A stretch of DNA of 64,000 nt from a virus (taxonomy: Duplodnaviria > Heunggongvirae > Uroviricota > Caudoviricetes). Of this stretch, positions 7,867 to 35,144 are shown in pieces. The stretch is taken from the IMG/VR virus record IMGVR_UViG_3300009826_000001, positions 1 through 64,000 of that record. One strand, written 5' to 3'. The notes beneath the pieces are model-generated. The model was given only the letters and a program-made list of their open reading frames with translations. It made no database searches and was not told the origin of the DNA. Position numbers and translations under genes: made by a program. Position 1 is the stretch's first letter. Each line of letters opens with the position of its first letter.

Positions 7867-7876
7867 AGGGGTTGAG

Positions 7877-7948: not shown

Positions 7949-7957
7949 AACATCTTG

Positions 7958-8082: not shown

Positions 8083-8092
8083 CAACATCTGC

Positions 8093-8209: not shown

Positions 8210-8219
8210 CGAAGTTGTG

Positions 8220-8384: not shown

Positions 8385-8394
8385 ACAAGCTAGA

Positions 8395-8514: not shown

Positions 8515-8630
8515 TTCAAGCAACAACTCAGGGTATGTACGGCGTACATGCTTGTCAAGGACATGTTTTCCCGGCGCGCCGCGAGTCATTACCCATTGCC
8601 GCCCGGATTCGGGCATACAGTGGCGATGTG

Positions 8631-9042: not shown

Positions 9043-9196
9043 GATCATCCACACCGCGACTGCGGCCGTCAGTGCGAGTACGGCCCCGGCGAACTTCAGC
9101 CACCACTCCCGCCAGTAACGCTCCCGGTGAGTGGTCACGCCATGCGACGCGCACACCCACATGTACTGCGGGTGGTTCTTGCGCCAGCAGTTGCAC

Positions 9197-9463
9197 TTAC
9201 CCATTCGTACCAGGACTAACCCTGAGTCCACCCTCATAGTCCTGTCGGGCCAGATCGACCGAGGCGACAGCGGGTATCCCCGCGTAACGCTCAAGTTGAG
9301 CGGCCAGCCACCAGATCATGCCGTACAGCTCCTGGATGGCCTCATAGACATCGCCCGAACTGCAATCCAGCATGGACTGGAGTTGGTCGTTAGCCAGCAA
9401 CTTTCCCTGATCGTCTACGCAATGACCGTAGCTTCCAGCCACCGTGGTCCTTTCATCCATTGA
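9197..9463 (-). CDS. hypothetical protein (88 aa)
   Basis: start MDERTT within ORF 9197..9544. Confidence 0.4.
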   Translation of the reverse strand, partial: SMDERTTVAGSYGHCVDDQGKLLANDQLQSMLDCSSGDVYEAIQELYGMIWWLAAQLERYAGIPAVASVDLARQDYEGGLRVSPGTNG

Positions 9464-9764
9464 CTCCGTAGTTGCGGCCCTTCTGCCACTGCGCGGCGTG
9501 CAGGTTGCACACCGGCGTGCCACGACCCTCCGGCTGTGGCTCACCCTTGGAATTCACCCACTGCACGGCCTTGTTGGCACAGCCCAGGTAGTTCCACATC
9601 TCCTCGTAGATCGGGCTCGACCAATCCGCGGCGTCGTACTGCAGCTTGGTGCGCGCCCGGCAGCGCAGCGCGCTCACTGGAGCTGCTTCCGAAACGCGAT
9701 AGTCGGCTCGTCGCCGTAGCTGCACTCGGTGTTCGGGCACGACGGCGTGCTGGTGATGCTCCAT
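9453..9764 (-). CDS. hypothetical protein (start uncertain, possibly internal)
   Basis: ORF track; C-terminal WVNSKGEPQPEGRGTPVCNLHAAQWQK looks coding. Confidence 0.35.
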   Translation of the reverse strand: MEHHQHAVVPEHRVQLRRRADYRVSEAAPVSALRCRARTKLQYDAADWSSPIYEEMWNYLGCANKAVQWVNSKGEPQPEGRGTPVCNLHAAQWQKGRNYGVNG

Positions 9765-9931
9765 TCATGGCCGTTGCTGCAGGAGTAGCCGGTGGTGGCG
9801 CGGTTGGGGTCGTGGCTGTGGTAGTTGCCATCTTCGTCGTAGTACGGCCTCCAGCCCATCAACGTCTTGGTAGTTCCGTTGATGTAGACCTTGCTGGTGT
9901 CGCCACTGAGCTGGCATCCGGGGCATTTCAT
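9674..9931 (-). CDS. Cys-rich zinc-ribbon-like protein (85 aa)
   Basis: MKCPGCQ...CSNGHEW...CPNTEC. Confidence 0.5.
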   Translation of the reverse strand: MKCPGCQLSGDTSKVYINGTTKTLMGWRPYYDEDGNYHSHDPNRATTGYSCSNGHEWSITSTPSCPNTECSYGDEPTIAFRKQLQ

Positions 9932-10287
9932 CGGTCGCTCATGCTTCCGCGCTGCGGCATAATCTCTCGCGCACCGTCATAGGGCATGAACGCGTAGGTG
10001 GGCAGGTCATCGGGGTTGTTCATCACCGGGATGCCGTTCTCGTCCATGCCGTTGGGGATCTGCTGCAGCGCCCAGCCATACTGGAGCGCCCAGTTCACAA
10101 TCCGGTCCCATAATCCCTGGTGGGCGATCACGATCTGGCGCGCTTCGAACTTGGGCGGCTCAGCGGCTTCGGGCAGCTCCAGGTCCTCGTCGGCCGGAAA
10201 CCATTTGTGACAGGCCCCGCAGTACCGATTGATCTCGTCGTTGGGGTTGTGACTGGTCTTGTTGCAGTCGGGGCAGGTGAAGCTCAT
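9928..10287 (-). CDS. zinc-ribbon protein (119 aa)
   Basis: MSFTCPDCNKTSHNPNDEINRYCGACHKWF. Confidence 0.5.
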   Translation of the reverse strand: MSFTCPDCNKTSHNPNDEINRYCGACHKWFPADEDLELPEAAEPPKFEARQIVIAHQGLWDRIVNWALQYGWALQQIPNGMDENGIPVMNNPDDLPTYAFMPYDGAREIMPQRGSMSDR

Positions 10288-10532
10288 GAGTGCCTTTCCT
10301 TGACGTGTTGGGCGACCCACTCGGCCGCCTCCTTGACGGTGGTGAACCCGGCGTAGGACTCGCCGCAGTTCTCGCACACGACCAGCTTGTCGGTCGGGTG
10401 CGGCTCGGCGACGATCTCTACCCTTGGTGGATCTGCGGGTCGTTGCGCTGCTTCGCTCGCTGCCGATGGCTTCTTAGGCCGGCGGCCACGACCCCGAAAG
10501 CGGTTCGGGAGCCAGCCCCTCGGAGGGCTCAT
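10284..10532 (-). CDS. hypothetical protein with CxxC motif (82 aa)
   Basis: ORF track; KLVVCENCGESYAGF. Confidence 0.5.
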   Translation of the reverse strand: MSPPRGWLPNRFRGRGRRPKKPSAASEAAQRPADPPRVEIVAEPHPTDKLVVCENCGESYAGFTTVKEAAEWVAQHVKERHS

Positions 10533-10972
10533 GGCTCCTGTTCGCCCACAGTCAGGATCGCCGGGTTGACCACTCCGCCGCTCTCGTCGGCAACGACAGC
10601 CTTTTCCTCGCTCAGATACTGCCGGTTGTGCCAGCGCCGCAGTATTTCGCCGTACGCCCAGAACCGGGCGAGCGCCTCCACCGCACAGCCGTACATGAAC
10701 CCGGTGATGCCGATGTCAGCGTCGGCGTCCTGGCTGGCCTGCTCGGCGATCTCGAGGATGACCTTGGTGACGCCGTCGTGGTAGGCGGCGATCTCCTGCG
10801 AGGTCCACTGGTCGACCGGACCGCCGGGAATCAGTTCCCGGCGCCTGACCTCGGCCTCCATCAGCTCGGCCCACTTCTCGCCGTAGCGCACGACGGCCCT
10901 GCTGTAATCGTCGTCGTTGTTGACCGCGACGTAATCCTGATACTCAGCTTCCCTGCCGGCCACGATCTGCAT
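10529..10972 (-). CDS. hypothetical protein (147 aa)
   Basis: ORF track. Confidence 0.55.
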   Translation of the reverse strand: MQIVAGREAEYQDYVAVNNDDDYSRAVVRYGEKWAELMEAEVRRRELIPGGPVDQWTSQEIAAYHDGVTKVILEIAEQASQDADADIGITGFMYGCAVEALARFWAYGEILRRWHNRQYLSEEKAVVADESGGVVNPAILTVGEQEP

Positions 10973-10981
10973 ATCACTCCT

Positions 10982-11347
10982 TCACCATTGTTCTGACGGG
11001 TTCCCTATCTCGGCTGCCATGTCGTCGTCCTTGCGCGCCCGGCTCTCGTTGCAGTGCCGGTGCGCGGGCTGCCAGTTGGTCTCATCGAAGACCAGCTCGG
11101 GGGCCTGGCGCACCGGGATGATGTGATCCACGGTCGGGGCCCACGGGCTGCGGTAGTGCTGGCGGTAGTTGATCGGATTGCCGCACAGCGCGCACGGCTC
11201 ACCGGCGGCCTCGCAGCGGTACATGAACTGCTTGCGCAGCTGGCGGTAGGTGTTGTTGCGTCGCGGGTCGTCGCGGTCGCGGCCCTTGTGCGCCGGCCGC
11301 CACTCGCCTTCGGGGGTGTCGTCGAAGGGGTCGGCCTGCTCGGTCAC
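10982..11347 (-). CDS. HNH endonuclease
   Basis: CALCGNPINY...PTVDHIIPV...NWQPAHRHCNESR HNH motif; start uncertain (GTG near 11347; ORF open to 11533). Confidence 0.65.
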   Translation of the reverse strand: MTEQADPFDDTPEGEWRPAHKGRDRDDPRRNNTYRQLRKQFMYRCEAAGEPCALCGNPINYRQHYRSPWAPTVDHIIPVRQAPELVFDETNWQPAHRHCNESRARKDDDMAAEIGNPSEQW

Positions 11348-11625
11348 GGAGCGGGGGTGAAGTCGAAATACTTGCTGCGCTGCGTGGCGAAGTAGCCGCT
11401 GAGTTGGAGCACCGTTTTTTCGCAGCAGGGCGGGTGCGCTGTGGAGGTTCCGGCTACCGAGATGATGTGTGGACCGCCATCGGGCACCTGGTCGCCGAAT
11501 CGTGCGTTGCGCCACGCGATCTCCACCGCTCAAGGATAGTCACCGCCAGACCGCGAACAGCAGCAGCCACACCGCGATCGCCAATCCGACCAGCACGCCG
11601 ATGAGAACCATGTGCATGTCCATCA

Positions 11626-11772
11626 TGGCTCTTGGTTCATGTAGACGAACGCCAGCGCGCGCAGCGATAACGCGATGTCGATGAGTGCCAGTGCGATCGC
11701 CTGTTCGGCGAGCCCTTCGCGTGCCATCTCACGCATCTCGGGCAGCTCGCCGTCCTTGTCGAGAAAGTTGGT
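11626..11772 (-). CDS. small protein (about 50 aa, not in ORF track)
   Basis: MTNFLDKDGELPEMREMAREGLAEQAIALALIDIALSLRALAFVYMNQEP; followed by a 27-aa membrane peptide ORF (11542..11625). Confidence 0.3.
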
Positions 11773-15078: not shown

Positions 15079-15505
15079 TCTGACCAAGGTTGAGCGCGAG
15101 CGCCGGGATGCGTTGATCATCAACCTGTTCCTGTCCGGCCAGCGCGAGAGTGTGATCGCCCGCCGGGTCAACCTGTCGGCCAAGCGTGTCCACCAGATCG
15201 TCGATGAGCAGCTGGCCATCGCCAGCGAACGCTTCGGCCTGATCAGCCAGAAGGCCCTGGTCGTCAGCAATGAGCGCCTCGAGATGCTGCTTAAGGGCAT
15301 CTGGAACAAGGCGGTGTCCGGTGAGGACACCAAGGCCACCGAGGTTGCGCGCCGGCTTTTGGAGCAACAGGCCAAGCTCTACAACATCGCCGCCGACGTG
15401 CCCACCCGGTTCGCCCCGATGGGCGACAACGAGCTGACCGACGAAGTCGACGACCTGCGCAAGTACCGGGCACGCCATCACCCGCAGGAGGCATCCACGG
15501 CATGA
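15071..15505 (+). CDS. putative small terminase / HTH DNA-binding protein
   Basis: ATG overlaps upstream stop; [24 protein letters not shown]; lies upstream of large terminase. Confidence 0.45.
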
Positions 15506-15909
15506 CCAATATTGAGTGGCCGGCAGGATCGCTGAATGAACGCCGCGCCATCTTCGTCTATGAGGTCGCACGCCTGCAGGCCGCGGCGGTTGGCGCGCCT
15601 ATCGTCCCCGAGTCGTGGTCGCACCGTGACGAGGCGTTCCGGTCACAATTCCTCGGTGTCATCGAAATGATGGCCGGCGCGGACCGCAAAAGTGATCCCG
15701 AAGAACTGCACAACGACTGGTGGCGCAAGTACGAGGAGATGGGCTGGGTTTATGGCCCTGAGCGCGATCCGGTCAAAAAGACACATCCTGACATGGTGGA
15801 TTTCAAGCTGCTCGGCTGGCGTGAGCGTAACAAGGACGCTGTGTTCGTCGCGCTCTGCGAGCTAGCACGTCAATGGATCATTGACGACGATCCCGAGGAG
15901 GCGGCATGA
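15502..15909 (+). CDS. hypothetical protein (135 aa)
   Basis: ORF track. Confidence 0.5.
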
Positions 15910-16370
15910 CCGGAAAGCTCTCCGACGAGGACGGTTATGCGTCGGCACCCGGTGTCGAGGACATGGTCGCGGCGTGCGAGAAAAACACCGCGTGGCGCCG
16001 GGTGCTGGCCACCAGCGAGCGCACCCAGATCGTGCTCATGTCCATCCCGGTGAACACCGACATCGGCGCCGAGGTCCACAAGGTGGATCAGACCATCGTC
16101 TTCGTGGCCGGCGAGGGCTACGCCGACCTGGACGGCAGCAGAACAAAGATGGGCCCGGGCTGGATCGCGTTCGTGCCCAAGGGAACCCGGCACAACTTCA
16201 TCAACACCGGCATGGGGGACCTCAAGCTCTATACCGTCTACGCGCCGCCCAACCACAAGCCCGGCGACGTGGAGAAGACCAAGGCCGATGCCGCCAAGGT
16301 GCCCGACGTGCCACTGCACTCCGGGCGCACCTTCGCCTTACCGCGCCGCGATGCCTGGTATTACCAATGA
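15906..16370 (+). CDS. cupin-domain protein
   Basis: [20 protein letters not shown] matches cupin motif 2 G(x)5PxG(x)2H(x)3N; β-rich. Confidence 0.55.
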
Positions 16371-17995
16371 CAGCCGCCGTCGCCGAGGCGGTCCCTACGC
16401 TGGGATCGACGCTGCCGCGCATCTATACCCCTCCCCTGCCGGAGAACTGCGATCCGTATTACGAAGGGCCACAATGCCCTTGCGGCTGCGGGCTGAATGA
16501 CCAGACCAGCTGGGGCTACAGCGCGACCGACTTCCTGGAGAACCTGTGGCACTGGGAGCTGTTGCCCTGGCAGGTCTTTCTCAACTGGCACACCCTGGAG
16601 AAGCGTCCAAAGACCCACTCCGGCTTCCGATTTCCCACCACTTTGGTACTGGTTGCCCGCCAGCAGGGAAAGACCAAGTGGCTCAAGGGCATTGGCCTGT
16701 GGCGGCTGTTCATGGACGAGGGCGGTAAGTCCAGCGCGAGCTGCCCGGCCGCCAAGCTGGCGGTGATCGCGGCGCAGAACCTCGACTATGCCGAGACGAT
16801 GCTGGCCGACGTGGTGGGTGAGATCCGCAGCCACCGAGTCTTCTCCCGCGAGCTCGTCAACCACCGGGTGGTCAACGGCAAGCACCGCGCCATCCTGACC
16901 AATGACCGGCTGTGGCGCGCCGCCACCGCGAGCCGCCGTGGCGCCCGATCGCTGTCGGTGGACCTCGCCATGCTCGACGAGCTGCGCGAGCACACCACCC
17001 ATGACGCCTACAACGCGATCGCCCCGACCACCACGGTGCGGCCCTACTCCCAGGTGATCTGCACGTCCAACGCCGGCGACGTGCGCAGCGTGGTGCTCGA
17101 GGAACTGCGCGAGGTCGCCACCCGGCGCATCGTCAACAACGACACCGAGGGCGCTCAGGTGGGCCTGTGGGAGTGGAGCGTCCCGCTGGACGCCGACCCA
17201 CACGACCAGCAGTTCTGGCACCTCGCGCTGCCGTCGATGGGCCGGCTCAACGAGTTCACGATCGACACCGTGCGCGGCTACTACGAGGCCATGCAGTACA
17301 AGAACATGCCCGGGTTTCGCACGGAGTTCTTATGCCAGACGGTTGACGCGCTGGAACCCGGCATCATCCCGGCCGAGCAGTGGATGGACGGCAAGGACGC
17401 CGCCAGCCGGCGTGCCGAAGGGAGCCTTGTGTATGCCGCCCTCGACATCAGCTACGACCGCAGCTATTCCTACATCGCGGTCGCGGCCCGGCGTGAGGAC
17501 GGCAACATCCACATCGAGGTGATCCAGGCCGCCAATGGCACCGACTGGGTGATTCCGTGGCTGGTCGAGCGCAAAGACAAGTTCGTCGGGGTGGCCGTGC
17601 AGAAGACCGGCGCGCCGGCGTCGAGCCTGATCCCCGAGATGATCGAGGCCGGAATCAAAGTCGTGGAATGGGGGCCGGGCTCCGAGGTCACCGGGGGCTG
17701 CTCGCTGTTCTACGACCGCATCGTCCAGGGCCAGGTTTTCCATAGGCCCAGCCTGGTCCTGGACCGGGCAGCTGCCTCCACGATCAGCCGGCGCGTCGTT
17801 GACGCGTGGGTGTTCGATCGCCGCAACTCTCCGGTGGACGCCGCGCCGCTGGTGGCGTGCGCTGCTGCGGTGTGGCTCCTGGAGCAGATTCCCGAGCCCG
17901 AGCCGATGATCCATTCTTGGCCGAGCGAGGACGAGATCGCGGCGTGGGAGCGCGAGGCAGAAGAACAAGCAAAGGAGATGGGATATGACCGATGA
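16367..17995 (+). CDS. terminase large subunit
   Basis: ATGA overlap with cupin stop; Walker-A-like LVARQQGKTKW; size and position upstream of portal. Confidence 0.8.
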   Translation: MTAAVAEAVPTLGSTLPRIYTPPLPENCDPYYEGPQCPCGCGLNDQTSWGYSATDFLENLWHWELLPWQVFLNWHTLEKRPKTHSGFRFPTTLVLVARQQGKTKWLKGIGLWRLFMDEGGKSSASCPAAKLAVIAAQNLDYAETMLADVVGEIRSHRVFSRELVNHRVVNGKHRAILTNDRLWRAATASRRGARSLSVDLAMLDELREHTTHDAYNAIAPTTTVRPYSQVICTSNAGDVRSVVLEELREVATRRIVNNDTEGAQVGLWEWSVPLDADPHDQQFWHLALPSMGRLNEFTIDTVRGYYEAMQYKNMPGFRTEFLCQTVDALEPGIIPAEQWMDGKDAASRRAEGSLVYAALDISYDRSYSYIAVAARREDGNIHIEVIQAANGTDWVIPWLVERKDKFVGVAVQKTGAPASSLIPEMIEAGIKVVEWGPGSEVTGGCSLFYDRIVQGQVFHRPSLVLDRAAASTISRRVVDAWVFDRRNSPVDAAPLVACAAAVWLLEQIPEPEPMIHSWPSEDEIAAWEREAEEQAKEMGYDR

Positions 17996-18455: not shown

Positions 18456-19816
18456 GCGTTCTCGCCCGACTGATGCCGCGCGGCGGCGCGATGGAGCGCC
18501 GCACGCTGGAAAGCTCTGCGTTCGTCCCACCCCCTCAAGTCGGTGTGATCGACGATTACGTCGGCGTACACCGGGCGATGAGCTCAATGACGGTGATGGC
18601 CTGCGTGCGGCTGCTCTCCGATACCATCGCCAGCCTGCCGTGGAAGGCATACCGCAAGGGCAAGGACGGCATCCCCGTCGAGGTCGACCCGCAGCCGGCG
18701 ATCCTGCGCAGCCCGTTCCCCGGCTTCGACTTGTTTCAGTACAAGTGGATGATGGTGTCCTCGATGGCGTTGCGCGGCAACTTCTACGCCTACGTCACCA
18801 GCCGCGACGCCATGTTCCGGCCCACCGCGATCCTGCCTCTGCACCCCGACCTGATTTTTTTGGAGCGCCGACCCGACATCCTGATGTGGATGGACCCCAT
18901 CTACCGCATCATGGGCCAGCAGGTGCCCAGCCAGGACATGGTCCACATCCGGCGCTTCACGATGGCCGGCGAGCCGTGGGGCCTCTCCCCGGTCAAGCAG
19001 GCCGCGGCGGCGATCGGGATGAGCCTGGCCGCCGAGGAATACGGCTACCGCTATTTCCGCGAGTCGGCCAACCCTTCGGGCATGTTGATGACCGAGCAGA
19101 ACCTGTCCGACGACGTGGTCAAGCGCCAGCAACAGCAGTGGATCGCCAGCCACGGTGGCCGCCGGCTGCCGGCGGTGCTCACCGGCGGCTTCAGCTTCAA
19201 GACGCTCACGATTGCGCCCAACGAGGCGCAGTTCCTAGAAACCCGTCAGTTCCAGCGGTCTGAGATCGCCATGATGTACGGGATACCGCCGCACATGATC
19301 GGCGACACCGAACGGTCCACCAGCTGGGGCACCGGCATCGAGCAGCAGTCCATTGGCGCGGTCACATTCACCTTCCGGTCCTGGGCCGCGCCGATTGAAT
19401 CCGTGATGACCAACCTGCTGCCAACCGGCCAATATGTCCGGTTCGACTTCAACGAATTGACCCGAGGTGACATCAAAGCGCGCTACGACGCCTACGACCA
19501 GGCGATCCACTCCGGCTGGCTCAACGTCAACGAGGTTCGCCGCGACGAGCAACGGCCACCGATCGGACCTGATGGCGAAATCTACCTGCAGCCGGTCAAC
19601 TACGCGCCGCTGGGCTTCACCCCGGTGGCAGCACCACCCAAGGCGCCGCCGGCCGTGCCCCCGAACTACCCCGAAGCTCCCGGGGTGAAAGAGCCACCCG
19701 GAAAGGCTGGGCCGCCGCAGCCGGGGAAGCCAAACGGTAAAGGCACCCGAGATGACATCGGTGAGTATTTCGGGCGCCTATATCCGTGGCTTGACCCAGA
19801 GAATCAGCGAGGATAA
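18452..19816 (+). CDS. portal protein
   Basis: 454 aa, position between terminase and protease; HK97-like portal composition. Confidence 0.75.
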   Translation: MSVLARLMPRGGAMERRTLESSAFVPPPQVGVIDDYVGVHRAMSSMTVMACVRLLSDTIASLPWKAYRKGKDGIPVEVDPQPAILRSPFPGFDLFQYKWMMVSSMALRGNFYAYVTSRDAMFRPTAILPLHPDLIFLERRPDILMWMDPIYRIMGQQVPSQDMVHIRRFTMAGEPWGLSPVKQAAAAIGMSLAAEEYGYRYFRESANPSGMLMTEQNLSDDVVKRQQQQWIASHGGRRLPAVLTGGFSFKTLTIAPNEAQFLETRQFQRSEIAMMYGIPPHMIGDTERSTSWGTGIEQQSIGAVTFTFRSWAAPIESVMTNLLPTGQYVRFDFNELTRGDIKARYDAYDQAIHSGWLNVNEVRRDEQRPPIGPDGEIYLQPVNYAPLGFTPVAAPPKAPPAVPPNYPEAPGVKEPPGKAGPPQPGKPNGKGTRDDIGEYFGRLYPWLDPENQRG

Positions 19817-19820
19817 AGGG

Positions 19821-22001
19821 ATGGACCACAGTAATCGCGCCCGCCTGATCGACGTCCCGGAGCGCCGCACCCTCGCGATGCCACCGGAGTTGCGTAAAGA
19901 CCCGGGCACCGGGCAGCTGGTGATGAGCGGCTACGCCGCGACGTGGGACCCCTACGACTGCTACGGCGGACCCGACCACGGCGGGTGGGTGGAGAAGCTG
20001 GAACGGGCCGCGTTCGAGCGCACCCTTGACGAGAAGCCCGACATGATGCTGCTGGTCAACCACGAGGGACTGCCGCTGGCGCGCACCAAGAGCGGCACGC
20101 TGCAACTTGACACCGACCGGCGAGGTCTGACGATGCGCGCGATGCTCGATCCCGACGACCCCGACGTGCAGCGGCTGATCCCGAAGATGAAGCGCAAAGA
20201 CCTCAACGAGATGAGTTTTTCGTTCCGGGTCAAAGATCAGGCGTGGAACAGCGATTACAGCCACCGCACGATAACTGAACTATCACTTCAGAAAGGGGAC
20301 GTGTCGATTGTCAATTACGGCATGAACCCCAACACCCATGCGATCATGGGCGTGGAATCGCTGGCACGCGCGGACGGGAGCGCACTGATGGAGGTCCGGC
20401 GCCTGGACCGCACCGTGCTGGCCGGGGCGATGGCCAACCTGCGCCGCGCCTGGCGTGCCAACGAGGAACCCGAGCACTGCCCCGGTGGCGCGGATTGCAT
20501 GGGCGCGATGTGCCCCGACCACGGCGAGAAGGCCGGCAAGCGCCAGTCCACGCTGGTCAACTTCGATGGCGGTCACTTGCTGCACGGCGGGGAGTGCCTG
20601 ACGTGTGCGGGGGCCCGCGCCAAGACGCCGTCCCAGTACGGCAACGTCGACTACGCCGACCCCGGCTACCTGGACAGCTCGGGCAAGCAGGCCAAGGGCG
20701 GCAACGGCGTCAAGCGGTACCCGATAGATAAGACCCACGTCAAAGCGGCGTGGAGCTATATCAACATGCCCAAGAACCAGAAGGGCTACACGCCAAGCCA
20801 GCTGGCGTCGATCAAGAACAAGATCAAGGCTGCCATGAAGAAGTTCGGGCACGATACCGACGACAGCGACTCCAAGAGCCTGCAGACCGTGGTCGATATC
20901 GACCGGGTCGAGGGCGTGCGAACCGCAACCGGCGGCCTGGCGCTGGTGGCCGTGATGACCGATGGGTCGCGCACCCCGCTGCCGTCCTTGCAGGACACTT
21001 CCAGCCCGATTTCGGGCGTTCCCAGGATGCGCAAGACCGACAACTCGGTCACCGGGTCGGGCAAGGTCAGCGGAACGCGCGTGCCGGTCAAGGACGAGGG
21101 CGAGGACGACCCCGACGAGTTCGGCGAGCCGATCAAGGCCAGTATGCAGAACTGGAAGGACGACGAGGGCCCGAACGACCCGCACAACGAGCCCTACAAG
21201 GCACCGGGTCGCACCGGGCCGGGACAGGCCACCGACAATTCGGTGCTGGACGCCAAGCCCAAGACCAAGGACACCGACTTCTACGACATCTGGCCGGAGT
21301 ATTCGCCCAACGATCCGCACGACGACCCGTATGACGCGCCCAGCGACGAGGGTGACAAAGACCCCGACGAGCTGCACGGCGACCCGGCCCCCGAGCCGAG
21401 CCCCGCAGTCGGCACGGCGTTTCGGCAGGGCACCGGCCCGCGGCTGGGTGGTCACGACATTCCCACCACCGACCATCCGTACAGCGACGATATCGGCACC
21501 GAGCCCTCCGGTGATGCCTATGGCCCGCAGAAGGAGATGGACGACGAGGCCGTCGAGGACGAGCACCACGCCAAGACCACCAGCACCTCCAAGGAGTGGA
21601 TGGAGGGCAGCGCGGCCGAGGACCCGTGGGGCAAGCGCGAGCTGCCCGAGGACAATCCCGACTTCGACGACCCGGTGAAGATCCACGCCACTGCGCGCCG
21701 CGAAGGCAAGAAGCCGCCGACCGATCCCGATGACCCGGAGTACGAGAATGAGCGCCAAGACGGCGAGTCCGAGGCCGCCCCGGACTTCGGCGGCGGCGAG
21801 GATGGCGAGTCCGATTCCGACATGTCCGACGACATGGACGACGCCACGACAGGAGATGGCGGCGATGGCGGCGGCCTGGGCGAGATGTATTCCTACCAGC
21901 CCAGCGTGACCGAGCACCTGCAGCGACTACGACGCAATGCCGAGCTGCCCGACCTGCCGACGCTTGCTGAGGCGGCGGCGTACCTGCACCAGCTGGGCTA
22001 G
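19821..22001 (+). CDS. capsid maturation protease fused to long acidic scaffold-like C-terminal extension
   Basis: N-terminal about 200 aa HK97 prohead-protease-like; C-terminal about 480 aa D/E/P-rich; RBS AAAGGG before ATG 19821. Confidence 0.7.
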   Translation: MDHSNRARLIDVPERRTLAMPPELRKDPGTGQLVMSGYAATWDPYDCYGGPDHGGWVEKLERAAFERTLDEKPDMMLLVNHEGLPLARTKSGTLQLDTDRRGLTMRAMLDPDDPDVQRLIPKMKRKDLNEMSFSFRVKDQAWNSDYSHRTITELSLQKGDVSIVNYGMNPNTHAIMGVESLARADGSALMEVRRLDRTVLAGAMANLRRAWRANEEPEHCPGGADCMGAMCPDHGEKAGKRQSTLVNFDGGHLLHGGECLTCAGARAKTPSQYGNVDYADPGYLDSSGKQAKGGNGVKRYPIDKTHVKAAWSYINMPKNQKGYTPSQLASIKNKIKAAMKKFGHDTDDSDSKSLQTVVDIDRVEGVRTATGGLALVAVMTDGSRTPLPSLQDTSSPISGVPRMRKTDNSVTGSGKVSGTRVPVKDEGEDDPDEFGEPIKASMQNWKDDEGPNDPHNEPYKAPGRTGPGQATDNSVLDAKPKTKDTDFYDIWPEYSPNDPHDDPYDAPSDEGDKDPDELHGDPAPEPSPAVGTAFRQGTGPRLGGHDIPTTDHPYSDDIGTEPSGDAYGPQKEMDDEAVEDEHHAKTTSTSKEWMEGSAAEDPWGKRELPEDNPDFDDPVKIHATARREGKKPPTDPDDPEYENERQDGESEAAPDFGGGEDGESDSDMSDDMDDATTGDGGDGGGLGEMYSYQPSVTEHLQRLRRNAELPDLPTLAEAAAYLHQLG

Positions 22002-22003: not shown

Positions 22004-23356
22004 ATGATCGTCGGTGTCGGTACGGGCCGCTCAGGCACCTTGACGTTGGCACTATTGCTGGATGGTTGTCAGAACATCCGGTGCGTGCATGAGTCCGAGC
22101 CGCTGTTGCCGTGGGAGATCGACGGCCGCGCCTACAAGGACAAGCTCGCCGAGATCAAGGCCGAGCCGGGCCGCGCCGAGGTCGGCTTCTACTGGCTGAA
22201 CTACCTGCGGCCACTGCTCAAGGACGTTCCCGACGTGCGGATCGTGGCCACCCGGCGCGACCCGGTGAAGACCGCCGAGTCCTTCGCGGCCTACATGGGC
22301 CCCAAGCGCAACCACTGGCTGGATCACAAGGGTGTGGGCTGGGAGCTCGACCCGCTGTTCGACGACTGTTACCCCACCTACGAGATACGCGACCGCCACC
22401 AGGCGATCGTGCGCTACTGCACCGAGTACAACGCCGAGGTGGACCGGCTGCGGCGCAAGTACCCCTCCCAGGTGCTGGTGGTCAAGACCGAAGACCTGGG
22501 CACCATCGCCACCCAGCAGAAGATTTTCGAGCACTGCGGCATCCCCAAGTCCGATCGCTGCTATGTCGCCGGCATCCACCACAACAAGCGCAAGGAAACC
22601 CGCGACCAGCAAGACGAGCTGGACCTCACGGCGCTGTCGACCACCGGGGACTCTCAGCGCATCCCGCTCTACGTCGGCACCTACCGCAAGCGCAAGCACA
22701 TCGAGACCTGCCTGCGCAGCATCGACGCCAACGTCAAGGGCTACGACGAGATCATCTTCCTCGACGACTCCGGCGACCGGCTGCACACCAAGTGGCTCCT
22801 GCAGTACGGGCAGGTGGTGGCACTGCCCAAAGTCGGGCACAGCGTCGCGATGCGGGCACTGTGCGCGCACGCCAACGGGCGCCAGCTGGCCTGGATCGAG
22901 GAGGACTTCGAGATCACTGGCTCGATGGACCTCACTGAGATGAGCGAGCACCTCTACCACCGGCCCTACCTGGCGCAGATCGCGCTGCTGCGCCAGCCGT
23001 TGTGGGCCGACGAGAAGCGCCTCGGCGGCGTGCTGGAGGCGGTGGCCGCCAACGGCTGGGCGGTGCGCTATGTGCTGGGGCTGTGGGAATCGCGTGGGTG
23101 GTTCACCTGCAACCCCTCCCTGTGGCGCGGGCATGTCACCGAGCTGGGCTGGCCCAATCCCAAGCGGGTGGCCGGGCGCGACTACAGCAGCGAATGGATC
23201 AAGAGCAAAGAACTGCGCGAACTGTTCATGGGCGAGAAGCTGCCCTCGGACTGGATGGCGCCGATCAGCGAAAAGGAGCCGCGTGGCTACTCGTTCGGAT
23301 TCCTCGACGGCATCCGGTGTCACCACTGGGGACACCGGGAGGGCCACGGCTATTAA
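22004..23356 (+). CDS. sulfotransferase-like domain fused to GT2-like glycosyltransferase domain
   Basis: N-terminal IVGVGTGRSGTLTL (5'-PSB-like P-loop) and VATRRDPVKTAESFAAY (RDP 3'-PB-like) resemble carbohydrate sulfotransferases; C-terminal IPLYVGTYRKRKHIETCLRSI...EIIFLDDSGD GT-A/GT2-like. Confidence 0.55.
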   Translation: MIVGVGTGRSGTLTLALLLDGCQNIRCVHESEPLLPWEIDGRAYKDKLAEIKAEPGRAEVGFYWLNYLRPLLKDVPDVRIVATRRDPVKTAESFAAYMGPKRNHWLDHKGVGWELDPLFDDCYPTYEIRDRHQAIVRYCTEYNAEVDRLRRKYPSQVLVVKTEDLGTIATQQKIFEHCGIPKSDRCYVAGIHHNKRKETRDQQDELDLTALSTTGDSQRIPLYVGTYRKRKHIETCLRSIDANVKGYDEIIFLDDSGDRLHTKWLLQYGQVVALPKVGHSVAMRALCAHANGRQLAWIEEDFEITGSMDLTEMSEHLYHRPYLAQIALLRQPLWADEKRLGGVLEAVAANGWAVRYVLGLWESRGWFTCNPSLWRGHVTELGWPNPKRVAGRDYSSEWIKSKELRELFMGEKLPSDWMAPISEKEPRGYSFGFLDGIRCHHWGHREGHGY

Positions 23357-23512: not shown

Positions 23513-24196
23513 GTGAAGCCCTCGGTGCAGGTGGTCATCCCTTGGCGGCCCAGTCCCGAGCGGATGGCCGCCTTCGAGCGGACCATGCAGTTCTGGAACT
23601 ACGTCGGCTGGCCGGTGGTGTTCGGCGACTCGCCGGCCGACAAGCCGTTCTCGCTGGCCCAGGCCCGTAACCGCGGGGTGGCCAAGACCTCGGCGCAGAT
23701 CGTGGTGGTGTCCGACGCCGACACCATCCCCACGCTGCAGAACGTGGTGCGCGCGGTCGATGATCCCGGTCCCGGTGTGACCTGGGTGTTTAGCCACTAC
23801 CGGCGTATCCACCAGGACTGGGTGGACAAGCCCGACCTGATGGGCGCCCCGCTGATCGAGAGCTGGGAGAACGGACTGGGCGGCTGCTATGTCTGCAAGC
23901 GGTCCACCTACTTCTACATCGGCGGCACCGATCCCCGGTTCATCGAGTGGGGCTTCGAGGACACCTCGATGTATGCGGTGGCCTCCACGCTGGCCCAGGC
24001 CCGCCGGATGCCGGGCGTGATCTTTAGCTTTGAGCACGACGGCGGTTGGACCAAGCGCGGCAACCAGGCCAACCGGCCGCTGTTCACGCCGTATTACAGC
24101 GCGCGGCGCAAGCCGTGGATGATGCGTGCGCTGCTGCGCCAGCGCGCACAGGCCGACCCCACCGACCCGGCCAACATCTACTGGGGACGCCGGTGA
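23513..24196 (+). CDS. GT-A glycosyltransferase (β4GalT/GT7-like)
   Basis: GTG start overlapping upstream stop (GTGA); VVVSDADTIP DxD region, EWGFEDTSMY resembles the WGxEDDD galactosyltransferase motif. Confidence 0.6.
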   Translation: MKPSVQVVIPWRPSPERMAAFERTMQFWNYVGWPVVFGDSPADKPFSLAQARNRGVAKTSAQIVVVSDADTIPTLQNVVRAVDDPGPGVTWVFSHYRRIHQDWVDKPDLMGAPLIESWENGLGGCYVCKRSTYFYIGGTDPRFIEWGFEDTSMYAVASTLAQARRMPGVIFSFEHDGGWTKRGNQANRPLFTPYYSARRKPWMMRALLRQRAQADPTDPANIYWGRR

Positions 24197-24363
24197 GCGA
24201 TGTCATTCCCAATGATGGCCGCTACATCGTTGTCCGCACCGGCCAGCCGGAGGTCTTACTGGTGGCCTGCGCGGAGTGCGGTGTGCTGCTGTGGGACATC
24301 GACGCGCACTACAAACACGCACATTTCGTTCCACCCCATCCACCGCGCGGCGTGTCGCACTAA
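24193..24363 (+). CDS. small protein (56 aa) with CxxC
   Basis: GTGA overlap; VSDVIPNDGRYIVVRTGQPEVLLVACAECGVLLWDIDAHYKHAHF. Confidence 0.4.
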   Translation: MSDVIPNDGRYIVVRTGQPEVLLVACAECGVLLWDIDAHYKHAHFVPPHPPRGVSH

Positions 24364-24511: not shown

Positions 24512-25999
24512 ATGCCCGAGTTGCTAGAGGAGCGAGATCCGCTCAATCCGGCCGGGGGCATGGAGGCGTACCTCAAACGTATGCTCCAGCGCCGGGCTCA
24601 ATTAGTCCGACAGCGCGAGGCGTTGCAGGAGAAGGCCGAGGCCGTCCTGCTCGAAGCGCGCAGTGCGGGCCGCGACCAGCTTGGTCCTGAGGAAGATTCC
24701 GAGCTGCGCAAGTACACCAAGCAGATGAAGGCCCTGGGCGCCGACATTGCCGGCCTCGACGAGCGTATCGAGGAAACCCGGCAAGAGGTCGAGCGCACCG
24801 GCTCCATCAGCAAGAACCTCGCCAAGATTCGGCAGGCCGAGACTGCGGTCACCCGGGTCCGTGAGATGGCGGTCTACCAGCAGGGTGACAAGCGCCGGTC
24901 CTATATGCAGGACTTGGTGAAGATGAGCCTCAACCTGGACGCCACCGGCGAGTGCCGGGAACGCCTGATGCGGCACGCACAGGACGTTGCCACCAGCGAT
25001 GACTACCGGGAGTTCCGCGACATCGACCGGGTTGACGGTACCGGCGGTTACGCCGTGCCGCCCGTCTGGCTGATGAATCAGTACATCGAGTTGGCACGTC
25101 CGGGCCGGGCGTTCGCCAACCTGGTGCAGCGCCAGCCACTACCCGGCGGTACGGACTCGATCAACATCCCCAAGCTGTTGACCGGGACCGCGGTCGGTAT
25201 GCAGACCGACAACCAGGACGTCACCGAGGTGGACCTGACGGACACCTTCGTGAACGCTCCGGTACGCACCATCGCCGGCCAGCAAGGGCTCGCCATCCAG
25301 TTGATCGACCAGTCGCCCATCGCGTTCGACGACGTGGTGTTCCGCGACCTGGTGGCCGCGCACGCCGCCGCTGTGGACCAACAGGTTCTACAGGGCGACG
25401 GCACAGGCGGGCTTGGCCCGGGCAACCAGGCCGGCGGCCAGGTGCTCGGCGTGGACTACACCCCGGGGATTCTCACAGTGGCAGCCGCCACGGTGGACAT
25501 CCAGGGCGTGTACTCCGCGATCGCCAACGCCATCCAGCAAGTGCACACCACGCGTTTCCTGCCGCCCGAGGTGATCGTCATGCACCCGCGGCGATGGGGC
25601 TGGTTCCTGAGCCTGCTGGACACCACGCAGCGCCCGCTGTTCCTGCCCAGCGCCAACAGCCCGATGAACATCGGCGGTCTGTTGACTGCGGTGGCAAGCC
25701 AGCAGGTGGTCGGCCAGATGCACGGCCTGCCGGTGGTCACCGACCCGAACATCTCCACTGGGACGCCGCCTACCGGCGCACCGTTGGGGACGCCGGGCGA
25801 TGGCGAGGACACCATCTACGTCGCACGCGTGAGCGACTTGGTTCTGTGGGAGGGTGGCATCCGCGCTCGCGTGCTGCCGGAAACCCGCGCACAGACCCTG
25901 ACAGTCCTCCTGCAAATCTATTCGTACATCGCGTTCAGCGCAGGGCGGTATCCACAGTCCGTCGCGGTCATAACAGGTTTGACCCCACCGACCTTCTGA
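24512..25999 (+). CDS. major capsid protein (HK97 fold) with N-terminal coiled-coil delta-like region
   Basis: AAGGGA RBS; 495 aa; position after protease/scaffold; followed by strong terminator. Confidence 0.8.
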   Translation: MPELLEERDPLNPAGGMEAYLKRMLQRRAQLVRQREALQEKAEAVLLEARSAGRDQLGPEEDSELRKYTKQMKALGADIAGLDERIEETRQEVERTGSISKNLAKIRQAETAVTRVREMAVYQQGDKRRSYMQDLVKMSLNLDATGECRERLMRHAQDVATSDDYREFRDIDRVDGTGGYAVPPVWLMNQYIELARPGRAFANLVQRQPLPGGTDSINIPKLLTGTAVGMQTDNQDVTEVDLTDTFVNAPVRTIAGQQGLAIQLIDQSPIAFDDVVFRDLVAAHAAAVDQQVLQGDGTGGLGPGNQAGGQVLGVDYTPGILTVAAATVDIQGVYSAIANAIQQVHTTRFLPPEVIVMHPRRWGWFLSLLDTTQRPLFLPSANSPMNIGGLLTAVASQQVVGQMHGLPVVTDPNISTGTPPTGAPLGTPGDGEDTIYVARVSDLVLWEGGIRARVLPETRAQTLTVLLQIYSYIAFSAGRYPQSVAVITGLTPPTF

Positions 26000-31045: not shown

Positions 31046-31699
31046 ATGGTGATGGGCTTCATCGAGCAGCAGGCGAGCGCCTGGACGCAGATTGTGGACA
31101 TGATGATCGAGCAGCCCACCAATGTGCTCATCAACGGGTCGATGAACGGCCCCGCAGCCAACATGGCCGGGAGCGCCAACGTGCGTCACGAGCTGCCGTT
31201 TTTGCTGCGCGAGTACAAGATCACCTCGATGCTCGACGTGCCATGCGGGGACCTGTCCTGGATTCGGCACACCGACCTGCGCAGCCTCTATGTGTATATC
31301 GGCGTCGATGTCGACCGCCGGCTCATTGACGAGGCGCGCCGAGCGTGCCCAATGGGCGGGTTCATCTGCGCCAATATCCTCACCCGCGAGAAGCTGCCTG
31401 TGGTCGATCTGATCCTGTGCCGGGACTTCCTCATGTGCCTGCCTGACGAGCACCTGCAGTCGGTGATCGAGAAGTTCAAATGCTCGGCGGCAGCGTACCT
31501 GTTGGCGAGTAACTACCCGGGCTCGTCGAACACCTTCGACTACCATCCCGAGCAGTTCCCTATCCTCGGTTACCTGGAGAGGCCGTACGATCTCACTGCG
31601 CCACCGTTCAACCTGGAGCAGATCGACGGCATCATCGAGAACCAAGCATCGGCAGGATTGGTGAGCAAACCGCATGAGCTGGCACTATTCAAAATCTGA
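31046..31699 (+). CDS. class-I SAM-dependent methyltransferase-like protein (paralogue of 13301..14038)
   Basis: MLDVPCGDLSWI, GVDVD, DLILCRDFLMCLPDEHLQSV, YPGSSN...GYLERP shared with 13301..14038. Confidence 0.55.
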   Translation: MVMGFIEQQASAWTQIVDMMIEQPTNVLINGSMNGPAANMAGSANVRHELPFLLREYKITSMLDVPCGDLSWIRHTDLRSLYVYIGVDVDRRLIDEARRACPMGGFICANILTREKLPVVDLILCRDFLMCLPDEHLQSVIEKFKCSAAAYLLASNYPGSSNTFDYHPEQFPILGYLERPYDLTAPPFNLEQIDGIIENQASAGLVSKPHELALFKI

Positions 31700-31711: not shown

Positions 31712-32188
31712 ATGCAGCCTGAGTGGGCTGCCCGATTCTGGGCGAGGGTCGACAAGAACGGGCCCATCTCAGAGCTAGGCACTCCCTGTTGGATCTGGAC
31801 AGGACCACAGGCCGGAAAGGGATACGGATATCCCTGCTTCAATGGCAAGCATGAGTACGCCCACCGGCTTGCCTGGGAACTGGCCTACGGCCCGATCGGC
31901 AATGGGCTCACTATCGACCATCGCTGTCACGTTCCGCTCTGTGTCAACGCCGAGCATCTACGCTGCGTGACGCAGAAGCAGAACATCGAAAACCAGCGAA
32001 ACGGGATAAGACAGAGTGCCAACGGAGTTCGTGGAGTCACCCGAGGGAGATGGGGCGTCGGCTTCACCGCCCAGCTCAAGCATGAGGGAAAGTGCATCTA
32101 CCTCGGTACATACGCCACGCTCGAGGAAGCCGAGCAGGCGGCGGTCAACGGCCGCGCAAGGCTATTCACCCATTCAGACGGACGTTAG
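31712..32188 (+). CDS. HNH endonuclease with C-terminal AP2 domain
   Basis: CWIWTG...GYGYP...AHRLAWELAYGPIGNGLTIDHRCHVPLCVNAEHL (HNH_3) and GVRGVTRGRWGVGFTAQLKHEGKCIYLGTYATLEEAEQA (AP2). Confidence 0.75.
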   Translation: MQPEWAARFWARVDKNGPISELGTPCWIWTGPQAGKGYGYPCFNGKHEYAHRLAWELAYGPIGNGLTIDHRCHVPLCVNAEHLRCVTQKQNIENQRNGIRQSANGVRGVTRGRWGVGFTAQLKHEGKCIYLGTYATLEEAEQAAVNGRARLFTHSDGR

Positions 32189-32688: not shown

Positions 32689-33366
32689 TCAGCCCGGTCC
32701 GATCCCGGGGCGCGGCGCTTGACCGCCCGGTTTCGGGCGCCGGTGAAACCCCGAATGCTGTGCGTAGAGGTGCTCGGGATTCACGCAACCCTCATTGCGG
32801 CAGCTGCGCAGGATGACCGTGCGCGCCGGGATGGGCCCGTAGTGCAGCTCCCAGCAGTAGCGGTGCGCCAGCATGGTCTTGCCATTGACGCCGATGGTGG
32901 GCCGGCCGCGCCAGCCCCAGCAGTTGTTCTCCGGGCTCATCTGCACGCGGTCCCAGAACCGTTCCTCGGGCGTGCGCGTGATGAAGACCTCGCCGGGATC
33001 GCCGGTCTTGAGCCACGTCATGTAGTGGCTCACGCACCAGCCCCGGCAGTGCGCCGAGCGGGTGCAGCCGTCGACGATGCACTTGGCCCACTGGGGACGC
33101 TTGAGCTCGACATTGGCGAACTTCGCGCCGATCGAGCGCCAGTAGGACCGACGTGCCGCGGTGCTGCCGGCCTTCCAGACACGCAGGTCGGGCTCCATTG
33201 TGACCTCCACCAGCCCGCGGTCCGAGAGTGCCTTGACGGCCCGGTACGCCTGTGCGCGGGTGATGGCCAGCGCGGTGGCGATGCGACCGGTGGTCAGGTA
33301 TCGGCGGGTATCGCGCTCAAGAAGCGCCAGGATGCGGCGCTGCACGGACCCGATGGAGCGGCTCAC
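32689..33366 (-). CDS. HNH endonuclease with N-terminal HTH (opposite strand to late operon)
   Basis: CWGWRGRPTIGVNGKTMLAHRYCWELHYGPIPARTVILRSCRNEGCVNPEHL HNH_3 motif; N-terminal winged-helix-like; GTG start directly after T7 tract. Confidence 0.75.
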   Translation of the reverse strand: MSRSIGSVQRRILALLERDTRRYLTTGRIATALAITRAQAYRAVKALSDRGLVEVTMEPDLRVWKAGSTAARRSYWRSIGAKFANVELKRPQWAKCIVDGCTRSAHCRGWCVSHYMTWLKTGDPGEVFITRTPEERFWDRVQMSPENNCWGWRGRPTIGVNGKTMLAHRYCWELHYGPIPARTVILRSCRNEGCVNPEHLYAQHSGFHRRPKPGGQAPRPGIGPG

Positions 33367-34671: not shown

Positions 34672-35144
34672 TGGTCGGTGCGGTGATCACGCGGCACTGG
34701 CCGGCCTTGGTGCGCGATGTCCTCGCGCTGGGCTACCGGCCAACCGACCTGTTCACCAAGCTGAGCTTCTCCGAAGTCGCCTGCATCATCATCGCCTCAC
34801 CTCCCAACAGCGCGGTGCGCCATTCCGTCGACAAGGGCTGGAGCCGCGAGGCGCACCTGCTGGCGAACATGGCCGAAGGTGAGGCCGGCATCGCCAAGAT
34901 CAAGGAGCCCTATCAACGGCCCGGCGTGACCGAACGCCAGTCCGACGACCCCACCCAGAACCCGTTCTTCACCGCCGATGCGCTGACCTGGGAGGAATTC
35001 GACCGGCGTGAGAAAGAACGCTACGACCCCAACCGTAAGCACGTGAAACGACCCGGTAGCAGTCATTCCCGGGCGCTGCAGAGCTCGGGCCCCCGCCCGG
35101 TTCCTAAGGTCAACGAACTGAAGTTCGGCAGGAACCGTAAATGA
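34171..35144 (+). CDS. tail assembly chaperone G-T product via programmed -1 frameshift near 34653-34669
   Basis: -1 frame open from 34653 through 35144; G-run CCGGGGGAA in the 17-nt overlap window; T ORF ends 3 nt into the TMP start. Confidence 0.5.

Follow-up and report, generated by a model that had tools for sequence, protein, structure and literature searches.

We analysed a 64,000-nt stretch (the window) of the Caudoviricetes record IMGVR_UViG_3300009826_000001; the features given below with coordinates are on its plus strand. The gene under study (22004..23356) encodes a sulfotransferase-like domain fused to a glycosyltransferase domain, and we refer to it as ST-GT. It starts with an ATG 3 nt past the stop codon of a gene for an S78 head maturation protease with a DUF6582 domain and a long acidic tail (19752..22001; Pfam Peptidase_S78, E 1e-27). 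The protease gene, called on metagenomic contigs as a 726-aa ORF starting at 19821, forms the upstream boundary of the cassette. On the other side lies the gene of a second, GT7C/GT2-like glycosyltransferase (23513..24196; 227 aa as called), which matches PHROG 1721 (E 3.3e-32) and, weakly, Pfam Glyco_tranf_2_2 and Glyco_transf_7C. Next come a 56-aa ORF (24193..24363) called on metagenomic contigs, for which no Pfam or PHROG match was found, and the gene of the HK97-type major capsid protein (24512..25999; Pfam Phage_capsid, PHROG 2263), a candidate glycan acceptor. Two glycosyltransferase genes are thereby placed between the protease and capsid genes, which defines a virion cassette by location rather than by expression. 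The placement in the head-gene block beside another glycosyltransferase, as proposed in an earlier note on this DNA, is borne out. The locus has complete terminase, portal, protease, capsid and tail genes, and we therefore rejected its assignment to an encapsulin gene cluster with a sulfotransferase (PMC8346489).

The capsid protein is ~50% identical to capsids of Mycobacterium phages and prophages, and its named relatives are Mycobacterium and Mycolicibacterium prophages. It harbours two insertions, GLGPGNQAG and a Thr/Pro/Gly loop containing PPTGA, that are absent from the 119 closest capsids. We considered them as markers of an acceptor site and rejected them, as the other ST-GT phage has neither of them in its capsid (P0246). 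No acceptor motif co-varying with the cassette was found. The phage also carries a Mom-like gene. A search of the INPHARED phages for near-identical DNA returned no match, and thus the phage is not a sequenced isolate.

Both the ORF reading and metagenomic gene calls give a 450-aa ST-GT product, and gene callers predicted the identical protein on 10 metagenomic contigs. Two homologues (P0002 and P0003), 45-51% identical to it, have an equivalent two-domain architecture. The AlphaFold model (pLDDT 88.5) comprises two domains joined by a disordered linker (aa 197-217; 22592..22654; pLDDT <50), and the alignment with P0002 shows a 13-residue gap within this linker stretch. ST-GT is thus a real, conserved two-domain protein, with a sulfotransferase-fold N-domain, a flexible linker and a GT-A C-domain. 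The fusion is rare, with three protein clusters among billions of sequences, and no close relatives were found in scans of the GTDB genomes and IMG/VR.

The N-domain (aa 1-196; 22004..22591) was predicted to have the sulfotransferase alpha/beta fold and is nearer to sulfotransferases than to P-loop kinases. With Pfam, ST-GT matches Sulfotransfer_3 above the cut-off (31.3 bits, E 3e-7; cut-off 27) and Sulfotransfer_4 below it (19.6 bits over aa 3-164; cut-off 22.8), the latter family reaching up to 40 bits in fused relatives. A PDB search with a profile of ~110 N-domain relatives yielded 11 matches, all of them sulfotransferases (best E 1.7e-6), at only 15-21% identity to the solved structures. 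No curated NCBIfam family covers the domain, and the names of cluster members of the closest relatives are all 'hypothetical' or absent.

Two segments of the N-domain correspond to the PAPS-binding motifs of sulfotransferases, as the earlier note had read them. The three motifs it quoted from the protein are present as given, namely IVGVGTGRSGTLTL (aa 2-15) and VATRRDPVKTAESFAAY (aa 81-97) in the N-domain and YDEIIFLDDSGD (aa 247-258) in the C-domain. The first contains a 5'-phosphosulfate-binding-type loop, GVGTGRSGTL (aa 4-13; 22013..22042), located between strand 1 and helix 1 and aligning with GVPRSGTT of TPST1. In the model, strand 2-5 precedes it and helix 12-20 follows. Its core, GTGRSGT (aa 6-12), has the conserved Arg and Thr/Ser after strand 1, with G6 kept in 96% of 112 family members, R9 in 98%, G11 in 94% and T12 in 77% (Ser in a further 13%). 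The second contains a 3'-phosphate-binding-type motif, RRDPVKTAES (aa 84-93; 22253..22282), that aligns with VRDGRASVHS of TPST1. R85, found in 112/112 members, is at the end of strand 79-84, and S93, found in 90% at a spacing of +8, is within helix 87-98; the arrangement of an Arg at a strand end and a Ser in the next helix is based on the sequence and the predicted secondary structure. The candidate catalytic base, H29-E30 (22088..22093), lies at the end of strand 2 (His in 88% and Glu in 90% of the 112 members). These residues align with the Glu-Glu of 'CGEETR' in TPST1, whose Glu we take to be the TPST catalytic base. Conservation analysis of the same members also revealed family-specific motifs, W37, N103-H104-W105, P124, Y138 and Y142.

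The C-domain (aa 218-450; 22655..23353) matches Pfam Glycos_transf_2 with 23.6 bits for a cut-off of 23.3, and like that of Sulfotransfer_3 this score is just over its threshold. The fold agrees with the HMM match. D254-D255-S256 follows strand 247-254, E299-E300-D301 follows strand 295-299, and both acidic motifs are invariant across the aligned C-domain homologues, in keeping with the GT-A/GT2-like character ascribed to this half of the protein in the earlier note. By analogy with SpsA-type enzymes, we presume that they contribute to nucleotide and metal binding. The C-domain is 29% identical to glycosyltransferases of the cluster C Bixzunaviruses. Kudefre gp122, which bears the annotation 'AAA-ATPase' and is encoded just before the homologous glycosyltransferase, was considered as a degenerate sulfotransferase domain and discarded for lack of similarity.

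In the lineage of this phage, the slot between protease and capsid genes contains a conserved GT7C-like glycosyltransferase and variable partners, a methyltransferase in relatives and ST-GT here. In the closest relative (L076; capsid 78% identical), it harbours genes for a methyltransferase, a GT2-like protein and a GT7C-like protein, the last one just upstream of the capsid gene and 46% identical to the second glycosyltransferase of our phage. The slot contains a 362-aa GT7C-like protein in L077 and a 441-aa methyltransferase-containing protein in the P0166 phage, and it is enzyme-free in L078, prophiT37-1 and Typha. In the P0002 phage, the ST-GT gene is followed by that of a GT7C-like protein and accompanied by a methyltransferase gene, directly upstream of the terminase, portal, protease and capsid genes.

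With 1,261 HMMER matches, the N-domain family is common, and its members are repeatedly fused to or encoded next to glycosyltransferases and methyltransferases. Independent fusion partners include GT2, GT7, GT25, a PIG-L deacetylase and a methyltransferase. To search IMG/VR we drew patterns from the tighter of our alignments (A3), the broad alignment (A2) being too divergent for this. In 47 viral loci, 22 of the 150 genes at most two positions away from a sulfotransferase-like (ST-like) gene gave GT2 matches, ~9 coded for methyltransferases and five for capsid proteins. By comparison, 150 control genes from these loci, located five or more positions away, gave 0-1 GT2 matches (Fisher p ~3e-6). 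Salinibacter phages (184 records) have capsid, ST-like and GT2 as separate adjacent genes in this order, and so do at least nine unrelated viral contigs of IMG/VR (L042/43, L050/51, L054, L056, L059/60, L062 and L069; GC 39 to 68%).

We favour the interpretation, with somewhat less than even confidence, that ST-GT is a bifunctional glycan-tailoring enzyme of a capsid-adjacent virion glycosylation cassette, which would extend a glycan on virion proteins and sulfate it using host PAPS. Its activity, acceptor and glycan are putative. This functional prediction gains comparative support from the recurrence of the capsid/ST-like/GT2 synteny in unrelated phages, and from the variable glycan-tailoring cassette found in the same slot of close relatives. 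The cassette would be transcribed late, along with the head genes. From host nucleotide sugars, the GT7C-like enzyme and the GT-A domain might build a short glycan on virion proteins, with the capsid as the most likely carrier. In the N-domain, the GTGRSGT loop (R9, T12) and the R85/S93 pair would hold PAPS, and with H29/E30 as the base the sulfate would pass to a hydroxyl of the glycan, releasing PAP. We saw no gene for PAPS synthesis in those parts of the genome that were examined, so that the donor would have to come from the host. Hosts of the genera Mycobacterium and Mycolicibacterium produce PAPS, which their own Stf sulfotransferases use. The outcome would be a coat of sulfated glycans with a negative charge. 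Judging by glycosylated mycobacteriophages, it may alter the particle's surface charge, its antigenicity or its stickiness. Since sister phages encode a methyltransferase in the equivalent place, sulfation could be one of several alternative decorations. More tentatively still, a capsid-linked sulfotransferase and glycosyltransferase module may coat the virions of tailed phages from several bacterial phyla with sulfated glycans, in a fused form here and unfused in the Salinibacter phages and in various viral contigs of marine and soil origin.

The earlier note had predicted either a sulfated glycan on virion proteins or a modification of host glycans, functions that we, too, can only infer. 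In the latter case, the cassette would alter glycoconjugates of the host cell envelope, such as mycobacterial glycolipids or glycans of the arabinogalactan/LAM type, and mask or destroy a receptor. This would result in superinfection exclusion, or prevent new virions from adsorbing again to infected cells and debris. Glycosyltransferases by which phages convert the surface polysaccharides of their hosts form a well-established class. The GT-domain homologues of Gordonia phages and Bixzunaviruses are encoded outside the structural operon, those of Kudefre and the Bixzunaviruses beside membrane proteins, and in bacteria the N-domain family includes fusions to EPS-type GT2 enzymes. The cassette of the P0002 element is near genes for an integrase and a TetR regulator, a position typical of lysogenic conversion; nevertheless, it is co-oriented with the late operon and directly upstream of it. 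We consider modification of the envelope rather unlikely, because ST-GT is encoded between protease and capsid, and ST-like genes directly follow capsid genes in at least nine other viral lineages. Such a capsid-adjacent position implies late, lytic co-expression with the head proteins. Furthermore, no long helix of the membrane-anchor type appears in the secondary-structure output.

The marginal Pfam scores, with Sulfotransfer_4 under its cut-off, and a subfamily with no characterized member would also fit a protein whose N-domain has the sulfotransferase fold but transfers no sulfate. The domain might then serve in nucleotide binding or regulation, act as a kinase-like phosphotransferase or use a different activated donor, and ST-GT would be a glycosyltransferase with an accessory domain. 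This appears improbable given the PAPS-specific R85/S93 pair, which has the canonical spacing and is 100% and 90% conserved, and given that the candidate catalytic base is conserved as well. Every PDB profile match is a bona fide sulfotransferase. The GTGRSGT loop has neither the Walker-A Lys nor the GxxxxGK[ST] spacing, which argues against a P-loop of the kinase or ATPase type, the outcome that the earlier note had named as fatal to its proposal.

The structures nearest to the N-domain are protein-tyrosine sulfotransferases, not carbohydrate sulfotransferases. The domain might thus resemble the former in function and sulfate Tyr residues in a protein of the phage or its host, regardless of any sugar that the glycosyltransferase adds. 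We regard this as quite improbable. Carbohydrate and small-molecule sulfotransferases score only slightly lower (Schistosoma ST 13.5, Cpz8 12.4, NDST1 11.8 and 3-OST-5 11.6), and the top PDB profile match is 3rnl, not a TPST. In the alignment, the TPST segment around what we take to be the catalytic Lys is an insertion missing in the N-domain family. In addition, the recurrent fusion or adjacency with glycosyltransferases, a GlcNAc deacetylase-type domain and methyltransferases points to sugar substrates. Lastly, sugar hypermodification of phage DNA bases, to which the Mom-like gene and the two matches to TET-associated glycosyltransferases among the 150 neighbours of viral ST-like genes might point, is very improbable, as the cassette is linked to the capsid gene rather than to replication genes, no genes of a hydroxymethyl-pyrimidine or TET-type pathway were found near it, and we know of no sulfated DNA modification.

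The N-domain shares the common fold, the xRSGT loop of the 5'-PSB and the Arg...Ser pair of the 3'-PB with enzymes of the Sulfotransfer_3 (PF13469) and Sulfotransfer_4 (PF17784) families, such as TPST1/2, Alicyclobacillus 3rnl, Cpz8 and SgdX2, and its candidate base, like the catalytic base of these enzymes, is an acidic or His residue. It differs from them by its compact size (~195 aa), its low identity (15-21%) and its family-specific motifs. A combination of sulfotransferase and partner domain is also found in NDST, the bifunctional heparan-sulfate N-deacetylase/N-sulfotransferase. ST-GT differs from NDST and other glycan-tailoring sulfotransferases by its GT-A partner and its bacterial-virus setting, and beyond the common fold it has no sequence relationship with these enzymes. 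Closer in organization are the Salinibacter ruber phages (e.g. OR896240) and related IMG/VR contigs, in which an N-domain homologue of 30% identity is encoded directly after the major head protein gene and next to a GT2 gene, forming an unfused pair. Unlike in our phage the two genes are separate, and they belong to an unrelated phage lineage with hosts from an unrelated phylum. All the products are annotated as hypothetical.

Mycobacteriophages glycosylate their capsids and tail tubes by means of phage-encoded glycosyltransferases (Freeman et al. 2023, Cell Host Microbe, as cited in PMC12363180). The virion glycosylation systems of Che8, Corndog and Myrna likewise involve Mycobacterium-type hosts and phage GT-A glycosyltransferases, often with methyltransferases, that decorate capsid or tail. 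No sulfotransferase is reported for them, whereas here one glycosyltransferase is fused to a sulfotransferase domain, and the putative cassette lies between the protease and capsid genes. The word 'sulfotransferase' has 0 occurrences in a structure-based annotation of the mycobacteriophage pangenome (PMC12363180).

The earlier note had also claimed novelty for phage-encoded glycan sulfation. Our literature search found no paper describing phage glycan sulfation. The claim does not extend to the genes themselves, as phage Sulfotransfer_3 genes have already been annotated as auxiliary, with no function assigned. Sulfotransferase genes have been reported in OM43 phages and Synechococcus phage S-SRM01 (PMC10580990), and in viruses from glacier ice (PMC8290583). 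The authors of the OM43 phage study stated that the function 'remains unclear' (PMC10580990). Those genes are also phage-encoded, but they appear in listings of stand-alone metabolic genes, with no fusion, glycosyltransferase or capsid link described (PMC10580990, PMC8290583).

If the virion-decorating module exists as proposed, no sulfated glycoconjugate would have been described before on a bacteriophage particle, and the 'auxiliary metabolic' sulfotransferase genes of phages would for the first time have an assigned function. The capsid/ST-like/GT2 synteny would offer a testable function for the genes that virome studies list as metabolic, and the Salinibacter ruber phages represent a test system for this module that is already in culture. 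Glycosylation of mycobacteriophage virions, only recently shown, alters antibody recognition, which is relevant when mycobacterial infections are treated with phages. A coat of sulfated glycans would confer a strong negative charge on the particle and a likeness to the sulfated glycans of animal hosts and to mycobacterial sulfoglycolipids, and it could thus affect immune recognition, binding to mucus or matrix, and particle stability.

The gene at 22004-23356 (+) is an ATG-start ORF that begins 3 bases past the stop of the upstream gene and codes for a 450-residue protein, hereafter ST-GT. Independent gene callers predicted the same product on 10 metagenomic contigs (≤127.5 kb). The three peptide motifs picked out in an earlier note are present verbatim at residues 2-15, 81-97 and 247-258, and the gene annotation agrees with the neighbourhood that it described. 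An S78 head-maturation protease with a DUF6582 domain and a long acidic tail is encoded on one side (19752-22001, +), and a second glycosyltransferase gene (23513-24196, +; PHROG 1721 ‘galactosyl transferase’, E 3e-32) adjoins on the other, followed by a 56-residue ORF and the gene of the HK97-type major capsid protein (24512-25999, +). The neighbours also include a gene for endonuclease VII.

Pfam analyses matched Sulfotransfer_3 to residues 66-183 of ST-GT (31.3 bits; curated cut-off 27) and Glycos_transf_2 to residues 225-321 (23.6 bits; cut-off 23.3), with Sulfotransfer_4 below its cut-off of 22.8 (19.6 bits, residues 3-164). Scanning 1.84 billion representative proteins in full with HMMER, we collected 1,261 relatives at E ≤ 0.001, the majority being stand-alone proteins of ~200 residues that match the N-domain, a subfamily for which NCBIfam has no model. 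A profile built from 116 of the 1,261 matched 11 PDB sequences, all sulfotransferases, including Alicyclobacillus 3rnl (E 1.7e-6), the tyrosylprotein sulfotransferases TPST1 and TPST2, SgdX2, 5tiz and Cpz8 (9kf1). The AlphaFold2 model computed from the family alignment (mean pLDDT 88.5) showed globular domains at residues 1-196 and 218-450 with a disordered linker between them. In structure comparisons the N-domain, of sulfotransferase fold, was nearest to protein-tyrosine sulfotransferases (TPST2, 14.1; TPST1, 14.0), followed by a Schistosoma sulfotransferase (13.5), a tick TPST (13.0), Cpz8 and an OLS/CurM-type sulfotransferase (12.4 each), NDST1 (11.8), 3-OST-5 (11.6) and Mycobacterium tuberculosis Stf1 (10.8). 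The reading in the earlier note would have been refuted by the absence of a sulfotransferase-family HMM match or of structural similarity, or by a kinase-like loop, and none of these was observed. The best P-loop kinases scored 10.2-10.5, below these sulfotransferases, and the loop has neither the Walker-A lysine nor its spacing. ST-GT is almost certainly a two-domain protein, with a sulfotransferase-fold domain joined to a GT-A glycosyltransferase domain.

Among 112 aligned family members, conserved N-domain positions are found in the loop after strand 1 (G6 96%, R9 98%, G11 94%, T/S12 90%), at the end of strand 2 (H29 88%, E30 90%) and at the end of strand 4 and in the following helix (R85 100%, S93 90%), in addition to the family-specific W37, N103-H104-W105, P124, Y138 and Y142. 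In the profile alignment, GVPRSGT of TPST1, the Glu-Glu of its CGEETR and its VRDGRASVHS pair with GTGR[CS]GT, H-E and R...S of the family, respectively. The Arg in the first loop and the +8 spacing from Arg to Ser are as in TPST and other sulfotransferases, and the Glu-Glu region of CGEETR presumably holds the catalytic residue of TPST. The N-domain is probably a true sulfotransferase using PAPS as sulfate donor. The GT-A domain contains D254-D255-S256 and E299-E300-D301, which do not vary among the homologs that aligned.

The fusion is rare. It was found in the window protein (cluster P0001) and in clusters P0002 (415 residues, 45% identity to the window protein) and P0003 (396 residues, 51% identity), and none was found in INPHARED, IMG/VR or the GTDB representative genomes. 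The N-domain family has been joined to sugar enzymes repeatedly and independently, its partners being GT7 (P0018), GT2 (P0026, P0041, P0045, P0082, P0097), GT25 (P0066) and a PIG-L deacetylase plus GT2 (P0037); in P0044 it is fused to a methyltransferase. If the N-domain is a true PAPS sulfotransferase, its acceptor is likely to be a carbohydrate.

Stand-alone homologs of the N-domain are encoded at 60 viral loci in IMG/VR. Genes up to two positions away from the sulfotransferase-like (ST-like) gene, collected at the 47 loci where the latter could be delimited, gave 150 non-redundant proteins, with Pfam matches to Glycos_transf_2 (22), Glyco_tranf_2_3 (10), SAM methyltransferases (~9), Phage_capsid and Gly_transf_sug (5 each), and Glyco_transf_7C and LicD (3 each). 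Among 150 control genes from these loci, each five or more positions away from the ST-like gene, GT2 was present in 0 or 1 (Fisher p ~3e-6). Using phmmer, we found the order capsid, ST-like, GT2 at loci L042/43, L050/51, L054, L056, L059/60, L062 and L069, whose GC contents range from 39 to 68%. In 184 records of Salinibacter ruber phage isolates, the major head protein gene precedes genes for a 213-residue ST-like protein and a 372-residue GT2, as at 4604-7745 of Salinibacter phage 2_14 (OR896240), all three being annotated as hypothetical. This pair is the unfused counterpart of ST-GT, likewise at the capsid gene.

The window capsid shares ~50% identity with capsids from M. abscessus prophages and from phages of clusters Y (Typha, Bipper) and J (Omega). 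It has 1,111 metagenomic relatives; as the named ones belong to Mycobacterium and Mycolicibacterium prophages, the host is probably a member of the Mycobacteriaceae. In prophiT37-1 and Typha the interval between the protease and capsid genes is empty, with the capsid directly after the protease. The same slot harbours a methyltransferase, a GT2-like protein and a GT7C-like glycosyltransferase in L076 (capsid 78% identical; GT7C-like enzyme 46% identical to the second glycosyltransferase of the window), a single GT7C-like protein of 362 residues in L077, a 441-residue methyltransferase-containing protein in the P0166 phage, and two tiny ORFs in L078, whose capsid is also named in a Mycobacterium sp. 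MAG. Since its contents differ among relatives, the slot is a putative variable glycan-tailoring cassette around a conserved GT7C-like enzyme, with ST-GT as one variant. In the integrase-containing P0002 phage, genes for ST-GT, a GT7C-like glycosyltransferase and a methyltransferase lie directly upstream of, and co-oriented with, those for terminase, portal, protease and capsid.

Compared with its 120 closest relatives, the window capsid has a unique 9-residue insertion, GLGPGNQAG, near residues 300-309, and the longest version of a Thr/Pro/Gly-rich surface loop, PPTGA-containing and likewise unique in this set, at residues 416-434 (STGTPPTGAPLGTPGDG). These insertions were rejected as markers of the acceptor site: the other ST-GT phage lacks them in its capsid, so they identify no acceptor. 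A capsid 72% identical to that of the window, without an upstream protease, is encoded in a 165 kb contig (ENA contig_128496, 5001-8826) beside genes for endonuclease VII and a TraG/T4SS coupling protein; it may be a capsid gene that a conjugative or satellite-like element has taken up.

The phage genome is at least 127.5 kb. Its head protease is 726-749 residues long, versus ~300 in prophiT37-1 and Typha, those of relatives having 542-609; after the S78 and DUF6582 domains comes a ~400-residue, Asp/Glu/Pro-rich tail of low complexity that may be a fused scaffold. The terminase-position gene (16367-17995, 542 residues) directly follows those for RyR-domain (15502-15909, +) and Cupin_2 (15906-16370, +) proteins. 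In the P0002 phage (L005/L006), LAGLIDADG and intein domains are present in the terminase-position and portal genes (6076-8760, 9119-11638), with Hint and Intein_splicing between two Phage_portal segments in the portal protein. In the window, the tape-measure position is occupied by a single ORF of 3,394 residues (35141-45325, +), also one gene on metagenomic contigs, versus 2,390-2,485 residues in relatives; this length implies that the tail would be exceptionally long. Tail/baseplate-type genes (Sipho_Gp37, Gly_rich_2) follow. Within the tail module, directly after the tail terminator, a SAM methyltransferase gene (31052-31699, +; PHROG 3382, E 1.4e-35) may act in the same decoration pathway, because methyltransferases accompany the ST-like and glycosyltransferase genes of relatives. 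HNH (31712-32188, +) and MarR/HNH_3-like (32689-33345, -) genes lie nearby. A 570-residue Ro60/TROVE and vWA homolog is encoded at 6059-7771 (-); Ro-like proteins are annotated beside the glycosyltransferase cluster of Bixzunavirus mycobacteriophages. Other Pfam matches, with coordinates converted from contig L012, are Mom (DNA modification, ~575-1108), histidine phosphatase (~2183-2797), Band_7 (~4309-5175) and the anti-defence family Tad4 (~10529-10972), all on the minus strand.

In the mechanism that we propose, the cassette would be expressed late with the head genes, two glycosyltransferase activities would use host nucleotide sugars to assemble a short glycan on proteins of the virion, and the N-domain would sulfate it with host PAPS. 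This pathway would extend the glycosylation of capsid and tail tube by phage glycosyltransferases in mycobacteriophages (Freeman et al. 2023, as cited in PMC12363180). Modification of the host envelope by the cassette is a serious rival, because the capsid insertions identify no acceptor and because Gordonia phages and Bixzunaviruses encode their GT-domain homologs away from the structural genes. Given a carbohydrate acceptor, we lean somewhat towards the virion as the target.

Phage sulfotransferase-family genes have been recorded as auxiliary, with unclear functions (PMC10580990, PMC8290583), and annotated sulfotransferases are present in giant viruses too. The literature searched gave no account of glycan sulfation by phages, of an ST-GT fusion in a phage or of capsid/ST/GT synteny. 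We rate the ST-GT cassette as a variant of phage virion glycosylation cassettes not previously described in that literature. Its interest is moderate to high, because it makes a direct, testable prediction and because the cultured Salinibacter phages offer a tractable system for testing it.
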